Shown here: piece by piece, positions 5,488 to 16,790 of the stretch
How positions within the stretch are numbered: the first letter of the stretch is position 1
How the letters are laid out: each line of letters starts with the position of its first letter
Assembly: GCA_963932905.1 (NCBI GenBank)
Contig: CAWVRN010000004.1
Coordinates: 1 to 64,000 of the forward strand
DNA from: an uncultured Bdellovibrio sp.
GTDB taxonomy: Bacteria > Bdellovibrionota > Bdellovibrionia > Bdellovibrionales > Bdellovibrionaceae
Length of the DNA stretch: 64,000 nt
Direction of reading: 5' to 3'
Notes under the pieces: generated by a model
The model's input: the letters and a program-made list of their open reading frames with translations, nothing else
Databases searched by the model: none
What the model was told of the DNA's origin: nothing
Made by a program: the position numbers and the translations under genes

Positions 5488-7206
5488 TTACTGCTTGAAA
5501 ATGGGGTAGCGGTTGTAGTGGTCGTCCCATGATGTGTGTTTTTGATAAAAGAAACGGAAACGTTTGTTTGGATCTTTGGCGAAGGCTTCGTCTTTTAGTT
5601 TTTCTTGAAACTCTGCCGCGACTTGTTTGCTCGATTCTAGCATTTGTTTCGCAACATCTTCCGCTACGTAGTCTTCCATGTATTCTTTGATTTCGAAAAA
5701 TCGGTTGAAAAAGCCCCAGTACAACAACGAATCCGGTGCTAACGGCTCCAGCAAGTGAACAACCATCATGGCGTTTCTTTGATCGATGGGAACAAAAAAC
5801 ATGTTTTTAGGAAGTTCTATTTTTTCTTCCTTCCATTCGCCCTCTACCGTCAATGTCTGACGACCTTCGAATGAACTTGCGGCCTGTTGGGCTTTGCTGG
5901 CACGGAAAACTTTGACTTTTTCAGGCAATGGCTTTTTCCATTTCAGATATGTCACGCCATGCACATCGAATTTTGATTTAATACTGTCCATTTCCGATGC
6001 CGGGATAAAATATCCTTGCTCGGCGGCAGTAACCGTCACAGAAGGTTGAATCTCTTCATAGAAAGGAACCTTCCACGTCTCTGGTTTATCTGTTTCATAC
6101 CGGATAACATCAGCGCCAGAAATTTTTGATTTACTGATGGTGTATTTATAACCACCAAAATCAATCATCGATGATTTTGGTGTGTGTTTGAATGATACAT
6201 CAATTTTCTTACCCGCAATGCTAACCTTGTCTAATTCACGAGCTTGTTTTGTCCACTCTGCCCCTTTTTGCTGAGCAATTTCTAGTGTGGAAAGAACAGT
6301 GTCGTAGTGAACTTTAACTCGAGTGGCGTAATCTTTCCAAGAATGTGATTCAACTAAAACGCCAATGCGGTTACGTACAAACCAGTAGCCATTGGCAAAT
6401 CGAGGCGGCGATACACCTCGTGAAAATCCCGAGGTAGGTTTATCTTCATTTTCAAAACTAGGGTAAAACGGCAAAGCTAATCGTCCGCGTGCTTTCATTT
6501 TTTCCATCAATTGATTTTCATAGTCTTTGCCTGCCTTGTGCAGTGGGCCCGAACCGTGATAGTCAGTAGGTGTTGTGATAATGCCAACTTCAGGTTGAAA
6601 GTGCGCGCCATCGGTTACGTGCAGATCTAAACTAATGATAGGATCTTGCTTATTCCATAGTTTATTTAAATCACGCATTTCGCTGGCTTCTGATTTTACA
6701 AAATCGCGATTCATATTGTAATTTTGAGCCGTCACTCGCCAGCCCATTTCCTCTGGCCCTATTTGATTCGGTCGATTCCATTTTCCAAATCGTTCGTGAC
6801 CGTCCAAATTTACGATTGGAATAAAAATAACCTTTAATCCTTTGAATGGGTCCGGAGTCAATTTTTTCTCCAAAACATTTTTCATCAATAAAAACACAGC
6901 GTCTTTGCCATCGATTTCACCTGCATGAATTCCCGCTTGTATCCAAACGACCGGTGCGTGGGCACTCGAACTATCGTCATGAATCTGCAGATACCACATC
7001 GTGCGACCTTCAGGAGTGATTCCATATGACTGACATTGAACGCGTTTAGAGTATTTTTTCGCAAAACCTTTACATAGTCGTTCAGTTTCATCAGCCCGGC
7101 CGGTTTTGCTCCACATAGATCGTTCAGCAATAGTAGTTAAATCCACGCCCGCAGAAAAAGACGACAGACCCATCAGCAGTATAAGAAAAAGTAGAATTAT
7201 TTTCAT
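5488..7206 (-). CDS. Secreted M14 zinc carboxypeptidase
   Basis: GIHAGE, NRDF, DLH motifs; signal peptide from ATG 7206 (MKIILLFL). Confidence 0.85.
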   Translation of the reverse strand: MKIILLFLILLMGLSSFSAGVDLTTIAERSMWSKTGRADETERLCKGFAKKYSKRVQCQSYGITPEGRTMWYLQIHDDSSSAHAPVVWIQAGIHAGEIDGKDAVFLLMKNVLEKKLTPDPFKGLKVIFIPIVNLDGHERFGKWNRPNQIGPEEMGWRVTAQNYNMNRDFVKSEASEMRDLNKLWNKQDPIISLDLHVTDGAHFQPEVGIITTPTDYHGSGPLHKAGKDYENQLMEKMKARGRLALPFYPSFENEDKPTSGFSRGVSPPRFANGYWFVRNRIGVLVESHSWKDYATRVKVHYDTVLSTLEIAQQKGAEWTKQARELDKVSIAGKKIDVSFKHTPKSSMIDFGGYKYTISKSKISGADVIRYETDKPETWKVPFYEEIQPSVTVTAAEQGYFIPASEMDSIKSKFDVHGVTYLKWKKPLPEKVKVFRASKAQQAASSFEGRQTLTVEGEWKEEKIELPKNMFFVPIDQRNAMMVVHLLEPLAPDSLLYWGFFNRFFEIKEYMEDYVAEDVAKQMLESSKQVAAEFQEKLKDEAFAKDPNKRFRFFYQKHTSWDDHYNRYPIFKQ

Positions 7207-7372
7207 CCTCTCACCGTAGTTAGGAATACTCCCGTGGTCAACAGGCCTGCCTGATCCCGCTTTTTGCCAAGGCGCTTCCATGAGTAGCGCCTTGATCTAA
7301 GTGGCTAATTTTTCACTACTTAGCCATACGAGGTACCTTTTCGTAGCCATAGAGACATATATTTAATACACA

Positions 7373-7410
7373 GTACTTTACATTACACAGTACCTAGCCT
7401 ACTGTAGTAG
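7373..7410 (+). promoter_or_regulatory. Putative PadR autoregulatory operators
   Basis: GTACT-N11-AGTAC (7373-7393) overlapped by GTACC-N11-AGTAG (7390-7410) just upstream of the PadR gene. Confidence 0.5.
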
Positions 7411-7427
7411 CTAAGAACGAGGGCAGC

Positions 7428-7739
7428 ATGAACGCACAATTTAAAAAAGGGGTTCTTGAACTCTGCGTACTTACGATGATCAGCCGCAAGGATTATTACG
7501 GGTACGAATTGGTTGAAGAAATCTCGAAGGTCCTAGAAATATCAGAAGGAACCCTCTACCCGATTCTAAGACGACTCACCGATGAAAAATATTTTGAGAC
7601 GTATCTTCAAGAATCGTCAGAAGGCCCGCCTAGAAAGTACTATCGCATCACGAAATTAGGCAAGGACTCGCAGAAGGATCTGCTTAAACAGTGGTCGGAA
7701 TTCAATAAGCAAATAGAAAAACTAATAGGTAAAGGTTAA
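7428..7739 (+). CDS. PadR-family transcriptional regulator
   Basis: QFKKGVLELCVL, YGYEL, EGTLYPILRRL, GPPRKYY. Confidence 0.95.
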   Translation: MNAQFKKGVLELCVLTMISRKDYYGYELVEEISKVLEISEGTLYPILRRLTDEKYFETYLQESSEGPPRKYYRITKLGKDSQKDLLKQWSEFNKQIEKLIGKG

Positions 7740-7749
7740 GGAACTGGGT

Positions 7750-8322
7750 ATGACAAAGAATGAATTTTTAAAAACACTGAAAGCCGAGCTAGAGACCAAT
7801 CAAATCCGAAATGTATCTGAAATTTTGCAGGACTATGAAGAGCATTTTAACCATGGTCAGTCTAAGGGAAAATCAGAAAGTGATATCGCGGAATCATTAG
7901 GCTCCCCGATCACGATTGCAAAGGCATACAAAACAGAAAACATGATTGCCGAAGTCAAGAATATTGAAAATGGTTTTCGTTGGGGATTGGCAATTAACGT
8001 GATCTTAAGACTGTTAATCTTGGCCCCATTTAATTTTATCGTGCTTTTCATACCGGGAATATTTATTTTTTCAATGATCATTGCCGGCTGGTCAGTCGCA
8101 ATTGCCTTGGGATCTGCGGGACTTGCAATTCTTTGGAGTATCCCCTCTATGCTTTCGATTTCATCAACAATTTGGATGGCAATAGCCGGAATTAGCAGCA
8201 CGATTGGGCTCATGGGACTGTGTTTAATTGGCATGATGATAATGTTCTTTTTATCAAAACACGTTGTTCTAGCTTTGATCAGCTATCTGCAATGGAATTT
8301 AAAATTCGTAATGGAGAAATAG
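7750..8322 (+). CDS. DUF1700/HAAS-domain membrane protein
   Basis: MTKNEFL..L...EILQDYEEHF..G...GKSE..I..SLGSP followed by TM helices; typical PadR neighbour. Confidence 0.85.
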   Translation: MTKNEFLKTLKAELETNQIRNVSEILQDYEEHFNHGQSKGKSESDIAESLGSPITIAKAYKTENMIAEVKNIENGFRWGLAINVILRLLILAPFNFIVLFIPGIFIFSMIIAGWSVAIALGSAGLAILWSIPSMLSISSTIWMAIAGISSTIGLMGLCLIGMMIMFFLSKHVVLALISYLQWNLKFVMEK

Positions 8323-8331
8323 GAGTTTACT

Positions 8332-9201
8332 ATGAGATCATACAATTTATTTACTCGATTTTTTGTAGCTGTCGTTTTCACAACAATCACCTCCCTTGCC
8401 CTGGCAGGATTTTCTGCCAAACAGGCCTATGATGCGGATCCAGAAATACTGGCAAAAATTGAAAAAAAATATGACATCCAAATCCGCATGACTGGAATGG
8501 GGGTGTCGATTTCTGACGACAACATGCGCGCTACCGTGCAAGACCGCTGGGAACTTTCGGTTCCCACAAAACGGTTGGTCATAAAATCATTCGGCGGCGA
8601 CATTTCGATGAAAAGCACGTCCGATAACAAAATCACTGTAATAGCTACGGGAACATTGAATAAAGACAAAAGCCCAAGATTGCTTGAGATAAACGAAACT
8701 TCAGAAGAAACTACCCTGGCAGAACCAGAAAACGCAGTAAAGAATTTAGAAATTCGAATGGAAATTCCCGCTTCTTTTGCGAAAGATTTAGAAATTATGT
8801 CGGTCAGTGGTGATGTATCATTAGAGAACTTGAAATTAAACTTGGCTGAACTAAAGACAGTGTCTGGTGAAATTACCGTAAACAAGATTGATCTTCCAAA
8901 CTTAAAAATTGAAACCGTTTCAGGTGACACTAAAGTTCATGATTCTAAAATAAAATCCGTGAAAGGAAAATCAGTCAGCGGGGAAATTGAAATTGAAAAC
9001 AAAGACTCAGCTGATACCAGTGTAAATTCAATTTCAGGCGACGTGAAATTGAAAATACCTACCACCACACAGTACGAATTCAAACTTAATTCGATTTCTG
9101 GTGACATAAAAAATCATCACAAAAGTAGCGGCGACAGAAAAAACACCGCAAAACTAAATGTCGAAGTTAATACCACTAGTGGAAATATCGAAATCGAATA
9201 A
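8332..9201 (+). CDS. DUF4097 beta-strand repeat protein
   Basis: Repeated (T/S)VSG(D/E)I motifs; N-terminal anchor; third gene of a PadR-DUF1700-DUF4097 operon. Confidence 0.85.
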   Translation: MRSYNLFTRFFVAVVFTTITSLALAGFSAKQAYDADPEILAKIEKKYDIQIRMTGMGVSISDDNMRATVQDRWELSVPTKRLVIKSFGGDISMKSTSDNKITVIATGTLNKDKSPRLLEINETSEETTLAEPENAVKNLEIRMEIPASFAKDLEIMSVSGDVSLENLKLNLAELKTVSGEITVNKIDLPNLKIETVSGDTKVHDSKIKSVKGKSVSGEIEIENKDSADTSVNSISGDVKLKIPTTTQYEFKLNSISGDIKNHHKSSGDRKNTAKLNVEVNTTSGNIEIE

Positions 9202-9205
9202 AAAA

Positions 9206-9469
9206 CTATTTTTTGATCAGATGCCAACCAAATGCCGTGCGGGTTGGCTTTGAAATTTGCCCTGGTTTTAACGATTCAAAAGCTTCCAAAAAATCGGGGT
9301 CTAATCGTTTTGAATCAACCTCACCTAAAAAACCGCCATTTTGACTACTGCCACAAATAGAAAATTTTTTTGCTAATTCTTCAAATGATTTTCCCGTATC
9401 CAACATACGCTGAATATCTTTTGCTTCATATTCATGTTTCACTAAAATGTGATAAGGCTTAACTTTCAT
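9206..9469 (-). CDS. ppiC: Parvulin-type peptidyl-prolyl isomerase
   Basis: HILVK, FEELAKKFS.C.S...GG.LG, T.FGWHLIK. Confidence 0.85.
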   Translation of the reverse strand: MKVKPYHILVKHEYEAKDIQRMLDTGKSFEELAKKFSICGSSQNGGFLGEVDSKRLDPDFLEAFESLKPGQISKPTRTAFGWHLIKK

Positions 9470-9718
9470 ACACGACAGTATTCACTCCGACTTAAACACT
9501 TGTCTATCATTTTTTAAAAAAATTGGCTTCAACTTAACCAAGCACTATGGACTACGACTGCGCGTTAGCAGGCCCGTGTTCAATAGCACGCCCAATTTTA
9601 ATTTGCATACGTCGGGTTTTACCCGAGACTCCCAAACCATAGTCCTAACTGCAAATTTCCAAGACCTCACTTTCCCAAAACGAGACATACAAACCTTCTA
9701 CTATTTCTTTTTAAAAAT

Positions 9719-9745
9719 TAAGATAGAATAATTGTCCGCCGATAA
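9719..9745 (+). promoter_or_regulatory. Putative sigma28 (FliA) promoter
   Basis: TAAG-N15-GCCGATAA, 8 nt upstream of ATG 9754. Confidence 0.75.
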
Positions 9746-9753
9746 TTATCCTG

Positions 9754-11133
9754 ATGATTATTCACATCTTTTTTTTATTTCTCTCACTGCTAAGTCTGAG
9801 CTTGCGTGCGGACGTGGATTTGAAAAATGGCAACTTTTTCTATTCATGGATCGACGCCGATTTGTCATCAAAAAATTTTTTTTGGCAATTACAACGTACT
9901 TATAATAGCCGTGTAAACCGTGTTGGTTATTTTGGTCAAGGCTGGTGCTCACCTTTAGAAACAAAACTCACACGTTCAGCAGAATTAAAAAAAACGATCG
10001 AAATTCAAAATTGTGGTAGCGGCGAAAGCATTATCTATCAACCCGACGGCATAGAGTGGCGATCTGGCGATCAAGTCATCAGCATGAACGAAGAATTCTA
10101 TATTTTGAAAGTGAAAGGCGTCACTCAGCTACAGTTCAACAAAAATGGGACTTTAGATGCTTTTTGGCTTCGCGATGAAAAAGCTAAACTGAAATATCAG
10201 GACGATCGATTAAATCGTTTGGAAACACTGGCGGGAAATTTCAATTTCGTGTTCGATGAAGATGGCAAAGTAATTGAGATAAACTCAAACGCCGGCAGTA
10301 GTGTAAAGTACTCATATAGTGGCACCGATTTAGTGTCAGTAACTAATGCCTGGGGGAACCAGTTTAGTTATCAATACGACAAATTTGGGAATATGACTTT
10401 AGCAAAATGGCCGGATAAGTCCTTTTTGAAATTGAAATATGATACCCGTCGGGACTGGATCACAAGTCTAACGGACCGAGATGGATGCGCTGAGCACTAT
10501 GAATATGATTCAAAAAAAATCAAAGAGGGCTTGAAGATAACGTCCACCGTTCTTCGCACCTGTAAAAAGAAAACTTTCGATAAAAAAACTATGGAGATTG
10601 TTTTCGATAACCAAAACAATTTAAAAAATGTCAAAAAATCTATTGGTAAATCATGGAAGCAAGTAGAGTACAACTCCCTGGGCAAACCCAAAAAAATTAG
10701 CGACAACTTTGGATTAGCCCAAGTTTTCGACTATGATAAAAATGGAAACTTAATTTTAAAACAAAATGGCTCTGAAAAAACTCAATTCGTTTTAAACGAA
10801 AAAAGCCAGATTACTCAAGTAAACTCAGAAAAAGTAAAACTAAACCTTGACTATGACGACCGCGGTCGCCCGTCTCGTATCATAGCAAGCTATGATGCCA
10901 CATCAAAAGAGTTAGCTATCTCTTATATCGATACGACCGAGAAACTAAAAACACTAGAGCTCAAAGGATCTGGCCGAATTGACTATAGATACGACAATGA
11001 GGGCGCAGTCAGTGATACCACGGTGAAGGCAATTAAAACTTCAGAGCAAGAATTAAAAGCAAATGTAAATAGAGTTTATGGGATCTATACAACTTTGACA
11101 GATGAAGCTGCTATTTTTGGAGGTTTAGATTGA
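9754..11133 (+). CDS. Secreted DUF6531/YD (RHS)-repeat protein without toxin tip, Bd0109-like
   Basis: Signal peptide; VDLKNGNF, RTYNSR, GYFGQGWCS..ET; many YDxxG repeats; no DPxG core/tip boundary. Confidence 0.8.
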   Translation: MIIHIFFLFLSLLSLSLRADVDLKNGNFFYSWIDADLSSKNFFWQLQRTYNSRVNRVGYFGQGWCSPLETKLTRSAELKKTIEIQNCGSGESIIYQPDGIEWRSGDQVISMNEEFYILKVKGVTQLQFNKNGTLDAFWLRDEKAKLKYQDDRLNRLETLAGNFNFVFDEDGKVIEINSNAGSSVKYSYSGTDLVSVTNAWGNQFSYQYDKFGNMTLAKWPDKSFLKLKYDTRRDWITSLTDRDGCAEHYEYDSKKIKEGLKITSTVLRTCKKKTFDKKTMEIVFDNQNNLKNVKKSIGKSWKQVEYNSLGKPKKISDNFGLAQVFDYDKNGNLILKQNGSEKTQFVLNEKSQITQVNSEKVKLNLDYDDRGRPSRIIASYDATSKELAISYIDTTEKLKTLELKGSGRIDYRYDNEGAVSDTTVKAIKTSEQELKANVNRVYGIYTTLTDEAAIFGGLD

Positions 11134-11387
11134 AATCTATTTTAGCACTTGCCACCTGTTTAGTATTTTCATTTTCCGTAAATGCAGCAGAAACAAAGCG
11201 TAAAGATCCAAATTTAAATAAGACAACCAGTAATGCTACAGCTATTGCTCCAGGATGTACCGAATTCGTTCATCCCTGCTCAGGTCAAGCAGCAACTGCC
11301 TTGCTCAATTCGATCACAACTCCGATCAGTAAAGTCTCGCTCCCAATCCCTGCAGCTAGCTCAAGTAAAGGCGGAAGGGTTAAGTGA
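11130..11387 (+). CDS. Small secreted low-complexity protein with two Cys (possibly Bd0108/Hit-like)
   Basis: TTG start with GGAGG RBS overlapping the upstream stop; signal peptide ending VNA; S/T/A/P-rich. Confidence 0.7.
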   Translation: MKSILALATCLVFSFSVNAAETKRKDPNLNKTTSNATAIAPGCTEFVHPCSGQAATALLNSITTPISKVSLPIPAASSSKGGRVK

Positions 11388-14300
11388 TCCGTCTTTACAA
11401 ATTCATCTTATTTTTAATTCTATTCTGCTTGCGACTCTACGCCGCTGGTCCTTTTTGCCCATCTGCGCCTGCGAACTGTTCATTTAAAAATGTAGAAGAA
11501 GGATTGAAGGAACTAAAAGAGGAACGATTTTTTGGTTTACTAAAAAGTCCCAATTCTGTGTGCAAAGGCCACCTTATGCAAGGAATTAAGCCTGAAGCCG
11601 TTCTACCTGAACTCATGGCAGATCCCAGATTCACTGCCTACATTACACCCCAAATTTCACAATGCTGGAAAGAGGGCGGATCCAATTCAGGAAAACTAGA
11701 AGCGTTAAGTCGCTACGCCTACATTCAAAAGCGATTTGATGACAACGCAGACAATCTACTAGATTACCAGGTATTTGCCGATGCTGTTCTTGGTAACGAA
11801 CCACTTTCCGGTCTAGATTGCAAAAAGGAAGCACCCGAATTAGCAAGATTCGTTACTAAATGCCAAGAACTGAAATCAACATGCAAAAAATCCGATATGG
11901 CAAAAACCTTGGCCCAAAGTTTTATTGACGATTACAAATCTCAAGACATCAAAAATATTGAAAATCGTCTTAATGAAGCGAAAAAAATTTGGGATGGATG
12001 TAGTCCTCGCCAAAAAGCAGGAAAAAATTGCCAGGATGCCAAAAAGGAAATGGGACAGACCGCGTTTCGTTTACAAGTTTTCTATGCCAACTATCCTTGG
12101 GCCCAAGAAGACAAATTTTTAGAAGTTACCGGTAAACGTGGATTTGACGATGTCGATCTGGTCACCAAAGCTTTAAAAACACAGGTGGCAGACAATAGTA
12201 AAAATGTTTCTAAGCAATTAAAAGAACTAACGACCGCATCCCAATGTCTTTTAAGAAACAATTGCGATTCCGAAAAAGTAAACGATGTCTTGGAACGCAC
12301 TAAGCCACTCGCCGATCAATATTTCCTGAAAAAAGGCGCATCTAAAGAATCCAATCAGAGTCGTGCAGCGGTTTCACAATTTGTTTCCTACAATAATTGC
12401 CTTGATGACATGGGTGAATCTCAACGAAAAACTTCAACAACATTATGGTCCTCTGGAATTGGTGCTGTGGGTGCGATTGCCACAATGGGCGGAAGTTTAG
12501 TCCTCACCGGATTAACTGCCGGCGGACGAGTGGCGATGGGGGCAGCGGCTGTTGGTAGTCGCACTGCCTCAGTCGGAAAAGCCGCTTTAACGCTAGGACA
12601 AGCCGTCGACGGGACCGTAACTGCTCAATCTGTCTATGAAGCCTCCGGGCATTGCGGCAGCAAGTCTACCGGATATTTTAAACAAGCAGAAAAATCGGCC
12701 GGTCCACAAGCCTGTGGGATACCGACGGCAGGGCAAATGCAGTTTAAGAAAGAATATGACGGTTGTGTTCTAGATATCATTCTTGGTGTCGGTGGTGGTA
12801 GCGGTTTACTGATTGGTTTAAAAAATGCGAACAAGGCAAAACGTTTAGCTGCAGAAGCGGATCAAGCCGCAAGTACCGCTCGCGTGACTTCAAATGTGCC
12901 AACGCCACCCCCTTCTAAACCAACTAATGTAGGATCTGGGACTTCAACCACTACCTCCCAGACCGTCGCAGAGGCAGAAAAAGCAGCTGTCGCATCTACA
13001 GTTGCGGACAAAGTGGAAAAAGCGACAACAAAAGTAACTTCGACTAGCGAGAACGCAGCCAAAGGAACGAACCCCCTTGAATCGATTTCACCAACAACAA
13101 ATACTGAAAAAGCAGCACCGACTAAGCTTGTTACCGATGGCGACTATATTTCTATTCAGTCTGCCGACAATAAAAAACAAGCCGCACTCGTCCTGCAAAC
13201 TCAAGAAAGTGCCACAGGCACTCTTTACCAAGTCGCAACTAAATCAGGTGATGGAAAAATTGTAAAAAAATGGATTGGTCAAAAAGAACTTGAAGGAATG
13301 AAGCCGCGTCTAAGCGATGCTTCTAAAAATATATTTTCGTCATCGAATATTAATAAAGATTTAGCTCAATCTGCGGTTCAAAACATTTCCCGTGGTTCAC
13401 CACCAGAAAAAGTGCGAGCGCTCGTAGGAAAATTAAATGATGTTTATGATGGTGGGGAAGCACGCCTTAAGATTGCTAGCAAACTAATTGGCAGGGAACT
13501 CAACGATGCCGAGAAAAAATGGATTATGGCTGCGCACAATACTCACGCTGATAAGGGGTATGGCAGTATTGGCTCAACACGAGTTCGTGATAAAATCAAT
13601 GCTGGTGAAGGACGTCCAAAATCGTTAGATAACAAAAACACACGCCTATTAATGGAAAATGGAATAATGGGTTCCGAATCAGGCGCCCAGGTGACTAGCC
13701 GAGCACCAATTCCAAATAGTCGACTCAATGGAACAGATAACTATACATTGGTAAACGGAGATAACTCATTAGACGTGCGCATCACTCAATCCGGAGTGAA
13801 AGATGGTGTCATATACCACAGAGTGGAAGTTCCGGGATATCCACCTGATAAAGCTCGCATTATGACAGAAGACCAATTACTAGGATTCATCAAACCAAAA
13901 ACGGAGGCCACAGCCGCCAGAGTAGAATCCACAGCTACCCGAGTGGAATCTGCCGCAGCCCGAGTCGACACCACACCGACGACGCCGCTTCGTCCTGAAT
14001 CACGATCACTCAATGCTTCAGCTGCTAACGACATCGAAGCAATAAATCAGGCTGAAATGAAAACAGTCACTAACCGAAATCGAGTGGAACATCTCAATGG
14101 CCAAGCGACTACTAAGCCAGAGCGCATGCGTGAGGTTTATGGCACCAATTTAGGTATAACCGATGCAAATCGCCGAGCCGCCATTGCGTATGCTCCTGTG
14201 GCCGAAGCCAAAACAATGACCTCTGCCCTACAGAAGGCTCTAGGAGCCGATTCTAAAGTTAACATTAAACAATTGCGACAAACAATGAGTTTCAATCCAT

Positions 14301-15862
14301 CTAGCGGCTATGTTTCGACAAATGAATTCGCAAATGCTGCTAAATTTGTTGAAGAAATTAATGCAAAAGGAGGAGTCAAAGCGCTTGATAAATTACCTCT
14401 CAGCGCGAGCGAACGGGAAGCTCTGAATGCTGTGATGGCTCGAGCTCCCTCCTACGCAAGTTATGTAGACCCAAAAGTTCGGTCTTTGGGCCAAGTTAAA
14501 ATCAGAAAATCACCTGTTGAAGCAACGAATCCAAATCGCGATGTTGTGGTCACGGATGCACAAGGACAAACGGTTCAAGGCAAAGAGACTATTAGACAAT
14601 TGAACGCTGAAGGTGAACAACTATCAACTGTGAGGTACACGAAACCTGACGGCACAGAAACAAGCATCACGGTTCGTACTTCACAAACCATGGATGTTGC
14701 CGAAGCTCAACGATTACAAAACTATGACCGAGCTCTAACCGAAAGAGCCAATGCTAATCGAGCAGCTCGAATTACCGCCAGCGAGCAACCTACGTATGTT
14801 AACCCCCATGGTGTTCCGCGTGCGGATATTAGTCCTACCCGCGAAGTAAAAGTTAAGGTTCAGACACTGGACGGTGTAAAAGAGGTTGAAGCCGTTGTTC
14901 AAGGTGCCCCATTCAAAGGAGTTAAAGGAACTCAAGAAGTCCAAGTTCGTTATCAAGATGGTGTTCTAAATGGCAAACCTGTCATCAAATATGCATCAGT
15001 TGCTATTGACGAGATCGAACAGGTAAAACCGATTGTCAAAGTAGTTGAAACCCCGGCACCCGCCGTTGTTTTCAAACCTATCAATGAAACTATTCTCAGA
15101 CCAGCTGACAAGGCCATAGATGCTGCCTCTCACGAAGGTCAAACATTTAGGCGAGCCGCCGATTCTGAAGGCGCCGATATTTTGTTAGATCGACGTATCG
15201 GAGAACGTGCTCACGTTGAGGCGTTACAAAGATCGGTCAAAGACGATCAACTACTGCTTAGGGAAGCTCAATTGTCTGATCGAAATGCTCAGTATGTTTC
15301 CCAAATAGGAAACACCTCGGATCCGCGTTTTAATCCTCGTGCGTTCTATGCCCATCAATCAAGCGAGTACCAATCGGCCATGAGTGCCCCCAAAGGTAGT
15401 CCGGCTGCTTCGCTTCGAGAACAAGCAGAGATGGCCTTTAAAGGCAGAATAAGTTACGATGCTAGCGGCAACGCTGTCAGAACGGGATCGGCTCGTGACG
15501 TTGCAATCAGAACGGCGCGGGCGCGCGGTATGCCGGAAGAAGAAATTGCGAAATTAGAAAAATGGATGAATGACTACGATCAAGCGGCCCCTCGTGTTCG
15601 TGCCGTTGAACGTGCTGAAGCCGCACAAAAAGAGTACGAGGCACTGAAACCAATTCTGCAAAAAGCCCTAAGAAACGACTCCGGCGTTCAAATTATTCCA
15701 CAATCTACATTTGAAAAAATGGCACAAAGTCTGAACGACATTATGTTAACACCGGAACAGAAAAAAGCGGCAGAAGTGGCTCTTAAAAAAATTCGCTGTG
15801 CCAGGCCCGAGTGGAAAATTCGAGATAATCAGTTCTCAACTTTTAATTTGAAGTGCGATTAG
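11384..15862 (+). CDS. Giant secreted mosaic protein (Cys-rich N-terminus, Gly/Ala hydrophobic segment, multi-module C-terminus)
   Basis: 1492-aa ORF with GTGA overlap to the upstream gene; signal peptide; function unknown. Confidence 0.85.
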   Translation: MIRLYKFILFLILFCLRLYAAGPFCPSAPANCSFKNVEEGLKELKEERFFGLLKSPNSVCKGHLMQGIKPEAVLPELMADPRFTAYITPQISQCWKEGGSNSGKLEALSRYAYIQKRFDDNADNLLDYQVFADAVLGNEPLSGLDCKKEAPELARFVTKCQELKSTCKKSDMAKTLAQSFIDDYKSQDIKNIENRLNEAKKIWDGCSPRQKAGKNCQDAKKEMGQTAFRLQVFYANYPWAQEDKFLEVTGKRGFDDVDLVTKALKTQVADNSKNVSKQLKELTTASQCLLRNNCDSEKVNDVLERTKPLADQYFLKKGASKESNQSRAAVSQFVSYNNCLDDMGESQRKTSTTLWSSGIGAVGAIATMGGSLVLTGLTAGGRVAMGAAAVGSRTASVGKAALTLGQAVDGTVTAQSVYEASGHCGSKSTGYFKQAEKSAGPQACGIPTAGQMQFKKEYDGCVLDIILGVGGGSGLLIGLKNANKAKRLAAEADQAASTARVTSNVPTPPPSKPTNVGSGTSTTTSQTVAEAEKAAVASTVADKVEKATTKVTSTSENAAKGTNPLESISPTTNTEKAAPTKLVTDGDYISIQSADNKKQAALVLQTQESATGTLYQVATKSGDGKIVKKWIGQKELEGMKPRLSDASKNIFSSSNINKDLAQSAVQNISRGSPPEKVRALVGKLNDVYDGGEARLKIASKLIGRELNDAEKKWIMAAHNTHADKGYGSIGSTRVRDKINAGEGRPKSLDNKNTRLLMENGIMGSESGAQVTSRAPIPNSRLNGTDNYTLVNGDNSLDVRITQSGVKDGVIYHRVEVPGYPPDKARIMTEDQLLGFIKPKTEATAARVESTATRVESAAARVDTTPTTPLRPESRSLNASAANDIEAINQAEMKTVTNRNRVEHLNGQATTKPERMREVYGTNLGITDANRRAAIAYAPVAEAKTMTSALQKALGADSKVNIKQLRQTMSFNPSSGYVSTNEFANAAKFVEEINAKGGVKALDKLPLSASEREALNAVMARAPSYASYVDPKVRSLGQVKIRKSPVEATNPNRDVVVTDAQGQTVQGKETIRQLNAEGEQLSTVRYTKPDGTETSITVRTSQTMDVAEAQRLQNYDRALTERANANRAARITASEQPTYVNPHGVPRADISPTREVKVKVQTLDGVKEVEAVVQGAPFKGVKGTQEVQVRYQDGVLNGKPVIKYASVAIDEIEQVKPIVKVVETPAPAVVFKPINETILRPADKAIDAASHEGQTFRRAADSEGADILLDRRIGERAHVEALQRSVKDDQLLLREAQLSDRNAQYVSQIGNTSDPRFNPRAFYAHQSSEYQSAMSAPKGSPAASLREQAEMAFKGRISYDASGNAVRTGSARDVAIRTARARGMPEEEIAKLEKWMNDYDQAAPRVRAVERAEAAQKEYEALKPILQKALRNDSGVQIIPQSTFEKMAQSLNDIMLTPEQKKAAEVALKKIRCARPEWKIRDNQFSTFNLKCD
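13907..13969 (+). repeat. Three imperfect 21-nt tandem repeats in the giant ORF
   Basis: Encodes ATAARVE-STATRVE-SAAARVD. Confidence 0.7.
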
Positions 15863-16790
15863 AACTTTCTAGTCGCCGTTTAACTTGATTCATCTTTTTG
15901 TAAAGTGATCGATACGCCCTACTTTTTCCAAATAGCGAAAATAAAAAACGTTTTGTCCACGGAGTGCGAATTAAATAGAACAGCATAAAAGCGACGGCCA
16001 AACTTCGGCAAACAAACCAAACAATATTCATCGTGGTTGTACCTTGAAAGAAATGAAATAAAACCATCAATACTAAACTAACGAAGAAAAATGGATTCGC
16101 TAGATCTCGGCCGGCTCGCTTAAAACTAGAAACACCGTCCAAACTGGTCGAAGAGATCAGAATCTTCGATCGCCAAAGTGTCAATTTTTCTTCATCCAGA
16201 GACCACTCGATATCTGCATTTTTTTTGAAGGTCAAATACAGCACAATTCCAATCGCAACGATCACCTTTAACAACCAGTATGAAAAGAACACCCAATAGA
16301 TGTTTAAATGTGTATACGCTGTCATTTCTTTCTGAAAAAACTCGATCATTTTAAAAAAATCGAAACCGTAAACCAGTGTAAAGCCAACGGCGACTTGAAA
16401 AATACTCCAACTGACAAACAGAATCGCCCCTATTATCATCCCTGCCATGGTTCCACCTAAAATCACTGTGCCAAACCACAATAAAAACCCCTGCATAAAG
16501 ATAGCAATCATTGGCGTTATCTTTTTACCCATAGGCGAAAGTGTTTTTAGCAGTGCTACAATAACTGCGGTATTAAAAACTTGAACAGCTTTGGCTTTAT
16601 GACGAATCATCATCCCAAGGCAAATATACAGCTGATAGTAAGACAGCAAGGTTCCTGTAAAAGGAATTTTAAAACCATGACCCAAACTACCCACTACGAT
16701 CTCTACCAACGCCAAATGAGTCGCCGAATTGATTTCTAAATCCCTAGAAAATTTGTTGGGGTGAGAGTCTTGACTGTAGCCTGGATTCAT
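15843..16790 (-). CDS. Hypothetical multi-pass membrane protein
   Basis: 315-aa ORF with ~7 hydrophobic segments. Confidence 0.7.
   Translation of the reverse strand: MNPGYSQDSHPNKFSRDLEINSATHLALVEIVVGSLGHGFKIPFTGTLLSYYQLYICLGMMIRHKAKAVQVFNTAVIVALLKTLSPMGKKITPMIAIFMQGFLLWFGTVILGGTMAGMIIGAILFVSWSIFQVAVGFTLVYGFDFFKMIEFFQKEMTAYTHLNIYWVFFSYWLLKVIVAIGIVLYLTFKKNADIEWSLDEEKLTLWRSKILISSTSLDGVSSFKRAGRDLANPFFFVSLVLMVLFHFFQGTTTMNIVWFVCRSLAVAFMLFYLIRTPWTKRFLFSLFGKSRAYRSLYKKMNQVKRRLESSNRTSN

Follow-up and report, generated by a model that had tools for sequence, protein, structure and literature searches.

A hit-type YD-repeat gene pair coupled to a large modular exported protein in an uncultured Bdellovibrionaceae genome

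We analyzed a stretch of 64,000 nucleotides (nt) from an uncultured Bdellovibrio sp. (assembly GCA_963932905.1, contig CAWVRN010000004.1, positions 1–64,000 of the forward strand; hereafter the window), in which three plus-strand open reading frames (ORFs) at 9754–15862 encode proteins of 459, 85 and 1492 amino acids (aa), referred to here as the YD, small and large proteins. The locus combines a YD-repeat protein and a small protein of the type found in the hit locus of Bdellovibrio with a large, modular exported protein from an unnamed family. Together, these genes make up a single accessory operon in an uncultured predator of the Bdellovibrionaceae. The genome to which the window belongs, 98.6% complete, is denoted G000; other G-, L- and P-numbers designate the genomes, loci and proteins compared.

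A Bd0109-type gene pair precedes the large gene

The YD gene (9754–11133), the small gene (11130–11387) and the large gene (11384–15862 including the stop codon, with a GTG start) are all on the plus strand and overlap by 4 nt at 11130–11133 and 11384–11387. Both overlaps recur in the related genome G006 and the overlap between the small and large genes also recurs in G007. A preliminary description of this DNA had reported the 1492-aa frame and the overlaps, which proved correct, as did its statement that no immunity gene follows: there is no immunity-type small gene after the large gene because the next gene (15843–16790, minus strand) is convergent. A non-coding stretch of 285 nt lies upstream of the YD gene. 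Scans for a sigma-54 promoter upstream of or within the operon, allowing up to two mismatches, gave none, with counts at the level expected by chance, and scans of the operon for sigma-70 promoters and terminators did not exceed those of shuffled sequences.

The 459-aa YD protein carries a signal peptide and matches Pfam DUF6531 (44.8 bits), Pfam RHS_repeat (54.6 bits) and TIGR01643 (38.4 bits). In G017, which belongs to the same GTDB family and another genus and scores 123.7 bits with the curated Bd0108 model, the best match is a 550-aa YD protein encoded directly upstream of the Bd0108-type gene and on the same strand. The YD protein aligns from its first to its last residue with this 550-aa protein and with the 553-aa hit-locus protein of G000 itself, at 29% identity. 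Two deletions set it apart from these hit-locus proteins, it is ~90 residues shorter, and its C-terminus falls within Bd0109-type sequence, so that it ends without an RHS core end or a tip. Judged by homology and position, the YD protein is thus a full-length paralogue of Bd0109. In two published reports, Bd0109 is described as having RHS repeats but lacking the protease or toxin end, and Bd0108 and Bd0109 as Sec-exported proteins that bind each other with a Kd of 45 μM (PMC3818213, PMC4267844).

The canonical hit/Tad locus of G000 is located outside the window, on contig C1 (L033, 2535–10255), and has the order RcpC/CpaB, secretin, TadZ/TadA fusion, TadB/C (T2SSF-type), a 553-aa DUF6531 and RHS protein and a 117-aa small protein. 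The order of a YD gene followed by a small gene is therefore common to the window, the Bd0108-positive G017 and the Tad locus of G000. As in the Bd0109/Bd0108 pair of the B. bacteriovorus HD100 hit locus, the window encodes a short, Sec-exported DUF6531 and YD protein lacking a protease or toxin tip and then, on the same strand, a small exported protein that has a low-complexity tail and two Cys residues. Unlike the HD100 pair, the window pair lies away from a Tad pilus operon and is translationally coupled to the downstream 1492-aa gene. Indeed, the YD gene is not the last structural gene of a Tad (Kil-like) pilus operon; upstream of it are genes for PadR, HAAS-domain, DUF4097 and PpiC proteins. 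The gene for a third DUF6531 paralogue of G000 (299 aa; contig C26, L034, 6377–8234) runs into the start of a gene for a 324-aa subtilase, and a divergent gene nearby encodes another subtilase, of 1048 aa and with a PA domain; all three short DUF6531 proteins of G000 are encoded ahead of an exported protein.

The assignment of the small protein is less firm. It contains a signal peptide, a DPNLNK motif, an APG-C-x6-C motif with the Cys pair CTEFVHPC, an LN..TT motif and an Ala/Ser-rich, low-complexity tail, and its likeness to Bd0108-type proteins is at the level of such motifs; the Cys pair is conserved in an alignment of three orthologues. The NCBIfam model hit_Bd0108 (NF053838, cut-off 40) scored the small protein at 16.1 bits and its G006 orthologue at 18.4 bits, both below the curated cut-off. 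This model gives no match to the small protein of the G000 hit locus or to that of G062, a B. exovorus-like genome, and hence misses accepted counterparts as well. Comparison of the small protein with Bd0108-type proteins by hhalign gave E values of 3e-5 with and 0.049 without the signal peptides, which is statistically weak. Its predicted features, namely small size, Sec export, two Cys residues, low-complexity sequence and a position immediately downstream of a YD gene, are those of Bd0108, and we regard the protein as Bd0108-like by position and build, with homology not proven.

Searches of 5.8 billion clustered proteins recovered six other full-length orthologues of the large protein, with 56–79% identity; the closest named record of an orthologue is from a metagenome-assembled genome (MAG) of an uncultured Bdellovibrio sp., and DNA near-identical to the window is present in groundwater and biofilm metagenome runs. 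Among ten genomes of the genus, three carry the large gene, and exactly these three also carry orthologues of the YD gene (76% identity; G006 and G007). By contrast with this restricted distribution, all 10 genomes keep the hit-locus YD copy (554–573 aa) and the third paralogue (~310–370 aa). The order YD–small–large is retained in all five orthologous loci for which upstream sequence is available (the window, G006, G007, L086 and L087; L085 repeats the window sequence and is outside this count). The flanks of the trio differ in G007 and L086, giving three different genomic contexts overall. These data support a functional linkage of the large gene to the YD gene within the orthologue group.

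Several features of the surrounding DNA may be added. Just upstream of the operon, a compact group of three genes (7428–9201, plus strand) encodes the PadR regulator, the HAAS-domain membrane protein and the DUF4097 "toastrack" protein, and is followed by the PpiC-type rotamase gene on the opposite strand (9206–9469). The site equivalent to window 9470–15843 varies in the exported-protein cassette that it holds: in G003 (L082), G008 (L083) and G009 (L084) it holds a different same-strand cassette, composed of a 126–146-aa protein and a 568–680-aa orphan. In two of these three sister species, the small protein of the cassette resembles NttA (30.1 and 24.6 bits), which is a substrate of type II secretion. 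The G + C content of the large gene region (12001–16000) is 0.44–0.47 compared to 0.37–0.43 in the YD gene and flanks, which could reflect amino-acid composition or a foreign origin.

The large protein belongs to an unnamed, widespread family

The hydrophobicity of the N-terminus of the large protein (residues 1–21; 11384–11446; Kyte-Doolittle 2.11) and its LYA/AG end are consistent with a Sec signal peptide that is probably cleaved after LYA. It is followed by the motif A-x-GP(Y/F)CPSAP in 7/7 orthologues. The family-defining head (residues 22–350; 11447–12433) and the Gly/Ala region behind it (residues 351–485; 12434–12838) together contain 15 Cys residues, at positions 25, 32, 60, 94, 146, 160, 167, 206, 216, 288, 294, 339, 424, 444 and 461; only two more, Cys1472 and Cys1491, are found in the protein, and the 1010-residue Cys-free run between these groups is the 13th longest in the genome, in which the Cys frequency is 0.94%. 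An AlphaFold2 (AF2) model of residues 1–500, generated from 17 sequences (mean predicted local distance difference test score (pLDDT) 69.6), shows an all-alpha domain at residues ~25–355 with block pLDDT values of 61–94, mostly 74–90. Most of the Gly/Ala region was modeled with pLDDT values below 50 (residues 358–414, 428–443 and 469–500). This region consists of weakly hydrophobic helices, with hydrophobic windows at residues 356–390 and 459–480, the latter with a Kyte-Doolittle value of 1.93.

The remainder of the protein is a series of modules separated by linkers. A variable segment rich in Pro, Thr, Ser and Ala, with the first short module (GDYISIQ...), a putative beta module, occupies residues 486–655 (12839–13348); residues 501–600 contain 19 Thr, 12 Ser, 13 Ala and 8 Pro. 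Module H (RLKIASK...AAHN...LMENGIMG; residues 656–775; 13349–13708) follows and recurs behind the heads of other family members. A second short module and a linker (residues 776–880; 13709–14023) harbor a tiny tandem repeat of 21-nt period and 2.0 copies (13908–13950, score 58). Module R (residues 881–1045; 14024–14518) precedes further short modules and a conserved C-terminal block (~1135–1492), which together span residues 1046–1492 (14519–15859) and end in a Cys-x18-Cys loop. The signal peptide, Cys-rich helical head, hydrophobic Gly/Ala stretches, Pro/Thr linker and nearly Cys-free region of the preliminary description are all recovered in this architecture, and its 7-aa tandem repeat is real, although limited to two copies. 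Self-BLAST revealed no internal repeats in the large protein.

The ratio of nonsynonymous to synonymous substitution (dN/dS), estimated from four orthologues, is 0.11 in the large gene and 0.10 in the YD gene, values that are rough as dS is near saturation. By segment, the ratio is 0.06 in the head and the hydrophobic region and 0.14 in the C-terminal block, and reaches 0.24–0.38 only in linkers: 0.24–0.27 in the linker with the first short module and 0.38 in the least constrained segment, where the heptad repeat falls. As purifying selection acts throughout, the large gene is more than a chance ORF; it is a genuine gene under constraint from end to end. In the alignment, the seven orthologues remain collinear up to the C-terminus, where the final 21 residues are nearly invariant. 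Variation and deletion among them are confined to the linker and the first short module, which are lost in part or whole in four of the six other orthologues (P0004–P0007).

No match to Pfam, NCBIfam or PHROG was obtained for the whole large protein or for nine separate segments of it, and these searches gave no recognizable toxin domain. Sequence and profile searches of the PDB with the whole protein, an H-module profile and a tail profile returned nothing relevant. Foldseek searches with the AF2 model gave no convincing fold match for the head; ClyA, XaxA, SmhB and Cry6Aa were matched only at E values of 0.2–0.7 and TM-scores of 0.15 or less. In the ESM Atlas, scores for the head were 0.83 or less, which is in the chance range, and the tail had no usable match.

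The large protein is nevertheless far from isolated. A HMMER scan with residues 293–1492 identified 31 representatives, all with E <= 1e-10, and named members of the family derive from Bdellovibrio sp. qaytius, Pseudobdellovibrio sp. and Bdellovibrio sp. MAGs. When 401 genomes from across the phylum were sampled, a profile that included distant heads matched 47 of them (23 of 203 by genus), with open frames of 552–3790 aa. It matched 8/14 genomes of the genus that holds qaytius and 1/26 genomes of the genus of G017, the model genus, where the single match lies outside the head; this near-absence from the model genus would explain why the family has not been studied. Among the listed literature titles on Bd0108/Bd0109 or on Bdellovibrio polymorphic toxins, none concerned the head family, which for a nameless family is no proof of unpublished status. 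Cys residues 60, 146, 160, 167, 288, 294, 339, 424, 444 and 461 are invariant across 17 heads of distant relatives. These comparisons show that the large protein is a member of an unnamed, widespread family defined by a Sec signal, a disulfide-framed, all-alpha head, Gly/Ala helices with three invariant Cys residues, and lineage-specific modules.

BLAST and hidden Markov model (HMM) maps delineated four such modules: H (~657–765), R (~880–1040), a short module (~1100–1228) and the C-terminal block. Module R is present in two to three copies in proteins of 2400–3700 aa, the short module has four copies in P0014, and the C-terminal block is always found at the very end of relatives, closed by a Cys pair. 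Tails vary between members and include the head only, the head with H, the head with R repeats, the head with the C-terminal block and the head with an S-adenosylmethionine (SAM)-methyltransferase domain. This last domain (Methyltransf_11, 26.8 bits) is located just behind the hydrophobic region of one head-bearing relative. Other matches are found in R-module proteins: Gln_deamidase_2, a glutaminase-type domain, in proteins without a detected head (26.5 bits in P0022 and 24.3 in P0046; cut-off 25), a sub-threshold match to PI3/PI4-kinase in other relatives (22.9–23.3 bits; cut-off 27.1), and T2SSK, the helix-hairpin-helix-like part of GspK, at the end of R (28.3 bits in P0016 and 30.9 in P0041; cut-off 24.2). 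The window's own copy of R has no Pfam match.

The preliminary description had proposed a test of whether homologues keep the N-terminus and swap C-termini. This holds only at a deep level, because the orthologues are collinear and retain their C-termini, whereas the tails of distant relatives differ; the head is kept while C-terminal modules change only among relatives at ~20% identity. The family thus resembles polymorphic toxin systems in having a conserved head, C-terminal modules that differ at the deep level and a few relatives with enzyme- or toxin-type domains. It differs from them in that the seven orthologues show no tip variation, no immunity gene follows the large gene and the large protein has no recognized toxin domain; it is not a polymorphic toxin whose tips are exchanged. 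The linkage to RHS genes likewise held in part: it is found in the orthologue group, in the five loci described above, but an RHS match was present within the 1.5-kb flanks of 0/28 distant family loci. Sixteen distant loci with 10–20 kb of sequence contained no specific recurrent neighbor. Histidine kinases of varied architecture, the only family to recur to this extent, are encoded within a few kb of head-family genes in 5 of these 16 loci (L066, L068, L070, L076 and L079), a recurrence that is probably due to chance given how common kinases are. In P0010, P0011, P0018, P0019, P0033, P0041 and L080 (4658–8590), a second type of head stands in front of these H, R and C modules; it has a signal peptide and another conserved Cys pattern that includes a CC doublet, and in some cases a hydrophobic stretch near residues 300–335.

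A second instance in a Bdellovibrio exovorus-like genome

B. exovorus JSS is described as having a second Bd0109/Bd0108-like pair, A11Q_2207/2208 (PMC4267844). The B. exovorus-like genome G062 contains two Bd0109-type genes at positions that fit A11Q_2207 and A11Q_2375 of this strain and, by gene positions, the G062 locus L088 is apparently its second pair. At 6899–13541, L088 encodes a 570-aa Bd0109 paralogue that is not associated with Tad genes, followed by 85-aa and 233-aa proteins and a protein of 984 aa. The latter has a signal peptide, a Cys-bearing helical N-terminal part, an Ala/Gly-rich hydrophobic region with three Cys residues, a low-complexity linker and a Cys-poor tail. Its three Cys residues align with Cys424, Cys444 and Cys461 of the large protein, albeit weakly (hhalign P 0.0034, probability 9.6%). 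A 1211-aa protein of G101 matches both the head profile and the hydrophobic region and C-domain of the 984-aa protein, and thereby ties the latter to the head family.

The two loci are alike in having a Bd0109 paralogue and an 85-aa protein away from the Tad locus and, downstream on the same strand, a large exported protein of the same build. They differ in that a 233-aa gene intervenes in L088 and that the large protein there has 984 aa and another C-terminal domain. G062 therefore appears to provide one independent recurrence of a YD pair with a head-type large protein. No RHS gene was found near relatives of the 984-aa protein (0/10 loci). The C-terminal half of that protein (P0048, residues ~490–980) is a separate, widespread domain without a Pfam match; 80 of the 151 genomes sampled in the family, 27/32 of the genus of G017 among them, contain relatives of it, mostly in frames of 740–1050 aa. 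A gene for a DsbA-like thioredoxin is divergent from the end of the L088 cluster.

Location of the tail and possible modes of action

The mode of action of the large protein must be inferred, and depends in particular on where its ~1000-residue tail resides. Cys residues make up 0.20% of 37,931 tail residues in 35 family members, compared to 0.94% in the genome. Of the 75 tail Cys residues, 70 are no more than 35 residues from a partner, compared with 15 expected from random placement, a figure that overstates independence as the 35 tails are from kin proteins. The terminal Cys pair, spaced by 16–21 residues, is kept in eight C-block proteins. Tails that are poor in Cys and carry local Cys pairs are more typical of exported proteins, which makes doubtful the preliminary deduction that a Cys-free region denotes a payload of the cytoplasmic type. 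The hydrophobic segments are also marginal as stop-transfer anchors, with values of +2.3 and +3.5 kcal/mol on a position-independent Hessa scale, on which the signal peptide scores +1.0.

Our preferred explanation, to which we assign a probability of roughly 0.4, is that the large protein is fully exported, stabilized by disulfides, able to insert into membranes, aimed at the prey or the envelope and handled by the hit-like pair. The whole protein would be exported by Sec and oxidized in the periplasm, where the YD protein and its small partner may hold or release it, in the manner that Bd0108 and Bd0109 bind each other. It would then act outside the predator cytoplasm, either on the cell's own surface or on the prey envelope, with the Gly/Ala helices inserting into a membrane and presenting or passing on the C-terminal modules. 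Such a protein would work like the ClyA/XaxA/Smh family or the diphtheria-toxin T domain in combining a soluble helical bundle with a weakly hydrophobic, membrane-insertable helical segment; the head has no significant structural match to such proteins, and membership is not claimed. Two observations weigh against full export. The 15-residue stretch behind the last hydrophobic segment contains three to four Lys/Arg in the three members of the orthologue group scanned (0–3 in the other relatives scanned), and the methyltransferase and kinase-like domains of relatives need cytoplasmic cofactors.

These same observations are better accommodated by a protein that spans the inner membrane. The large protein could be a signal transducer or scaffold in which the signal peptide is cleaved, the head is periplasmic, residues 356–392 form a re-entrant hairpin, residues 459–480 span the membrane and the tail is cytoplasmic; the head would sense the periplasmic YD and small proteins and pass their state inward. 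The Lys/Arg-rich sequence KNANKAKR directly after the last hydrophobic segment, the hydrophobicity of residues 459–480, the invariant Cys339 and Cys461, which would both lie at the periplasmic face, and the SAM-methyltransferase domain just behind the hydrophobic region of a head-bearing relative are all consistent with this topology. It would also supply a path that the published hit model requires and leaves unexplained, by which a signal passes "back into the cytoplasm" (PMC3818213). The depletion and local pairing of tail Cys residues, including the conserved terminal C-x18-C, weigh against a cytoplasmic tail, however, as do the marginal hydrophobic segments, which AF2 models at pLDDT 23–45 and partly as coil. 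In addition, searches of the family libraries identified no known signaling domain in the tail. We therefore consider a transducer unlikely, if still the foremost competitor of an exported, membrane-inserting protein.

A surface adhesin or fiber-like protein is a more doubtful proposition. Here, the head and hydrophobic region would serve as an anchor and the small modules would bind the prey envelope or pili, with the YD protein as a carbohydrate-binding partner. The Sec signal, the Pro/Thr linker and the string of short modules are in keeping with such a role, and the R module of relatives matches T2SSK of GspK, a domain of the pseudopilus tip protein, while Bd0109 itself has been tied to pilus behavior (PMC3818213). 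Yet the large protein contains neither adhesin-typical nor internal sequence repeats and matches no adhesin family, and the enzyme domains of relatives suggest a function beyond adhesion.

The weakest explanation is the split RHS delivery system proposed in the preliminary description, with the 459-aa protein as the shell and the 1492-aa protein as a separately encoded cargo or toxin. The translational coupling and strict co-occurrence of the YD and large genes would suit it, and the YD repeats are shared with the RHS/YD cocoon toxins (type VI secretion system (T6SS) Rhs effectors and Tc BC; PDB 8h8a, 7q97, 7pq5 and 8cp6). However, only ~200 residues of the YD protein align, with the middle of solved RHS cores that all have at least 1065 residues, so that it has about one-third of the length of a full, closed shell; it scores 29.6 bits with the RHS_core model NF041261 (cut-off 2000) and possesses no core-end motif and no variable tip. 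G000 has no match to VipB/TssC (PF05943) or PAAR (PF05488), Tc A not having been searched for; a GspG gene indicates that a type II system is present. RHS repeats were absent from the 48 relatives scanned (28 of the 31 representatives, without the orthologue P0007 and two 54–68-aa fragments, and 20 further relatives), and, judging from the sizes of solved cocoons, a folded 1492-aa protein would be too big for so short a YD sheet. Together with the full-length match to Bd0109, the constant tips and the missing immunity gene, these findings largely refute the split-RHS model, which we regard as very improbable; the large protein is not the cargo of an RHS cocoon.

The control of the Bdellovibrio predatory switch by Bd0108 and Bd0109 is still unexplained. 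The window presents a paralogous pair that is coupled not to pilus genes but to a defined large client protein, with a second case in a B. exovorus-like genome, and leads to the testable idea that short, tip-less YD proteins may bind or gate an exported partner. The family of giant modular proteins is itself a candidate for prey-directed functions in predatory bacteria. A bolder proposal, which as a whole we hold to be improbable, is that the Bdellovibrionota own an unnamed class of Sec-exported, self-inserting delivery proteins, in which the head and Gly/Ala region carry exchangeable cargo modules (in proteins on the 0.5–3.3 kb scale) into or onto prey, and that Bd0109/Bd0108-type pairs are general periplasmic gatekeepers for such predation factors rather than pilus-specific regulators. 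If this were true, the long-unexplained hit-locus proteins would gain a concrete client.

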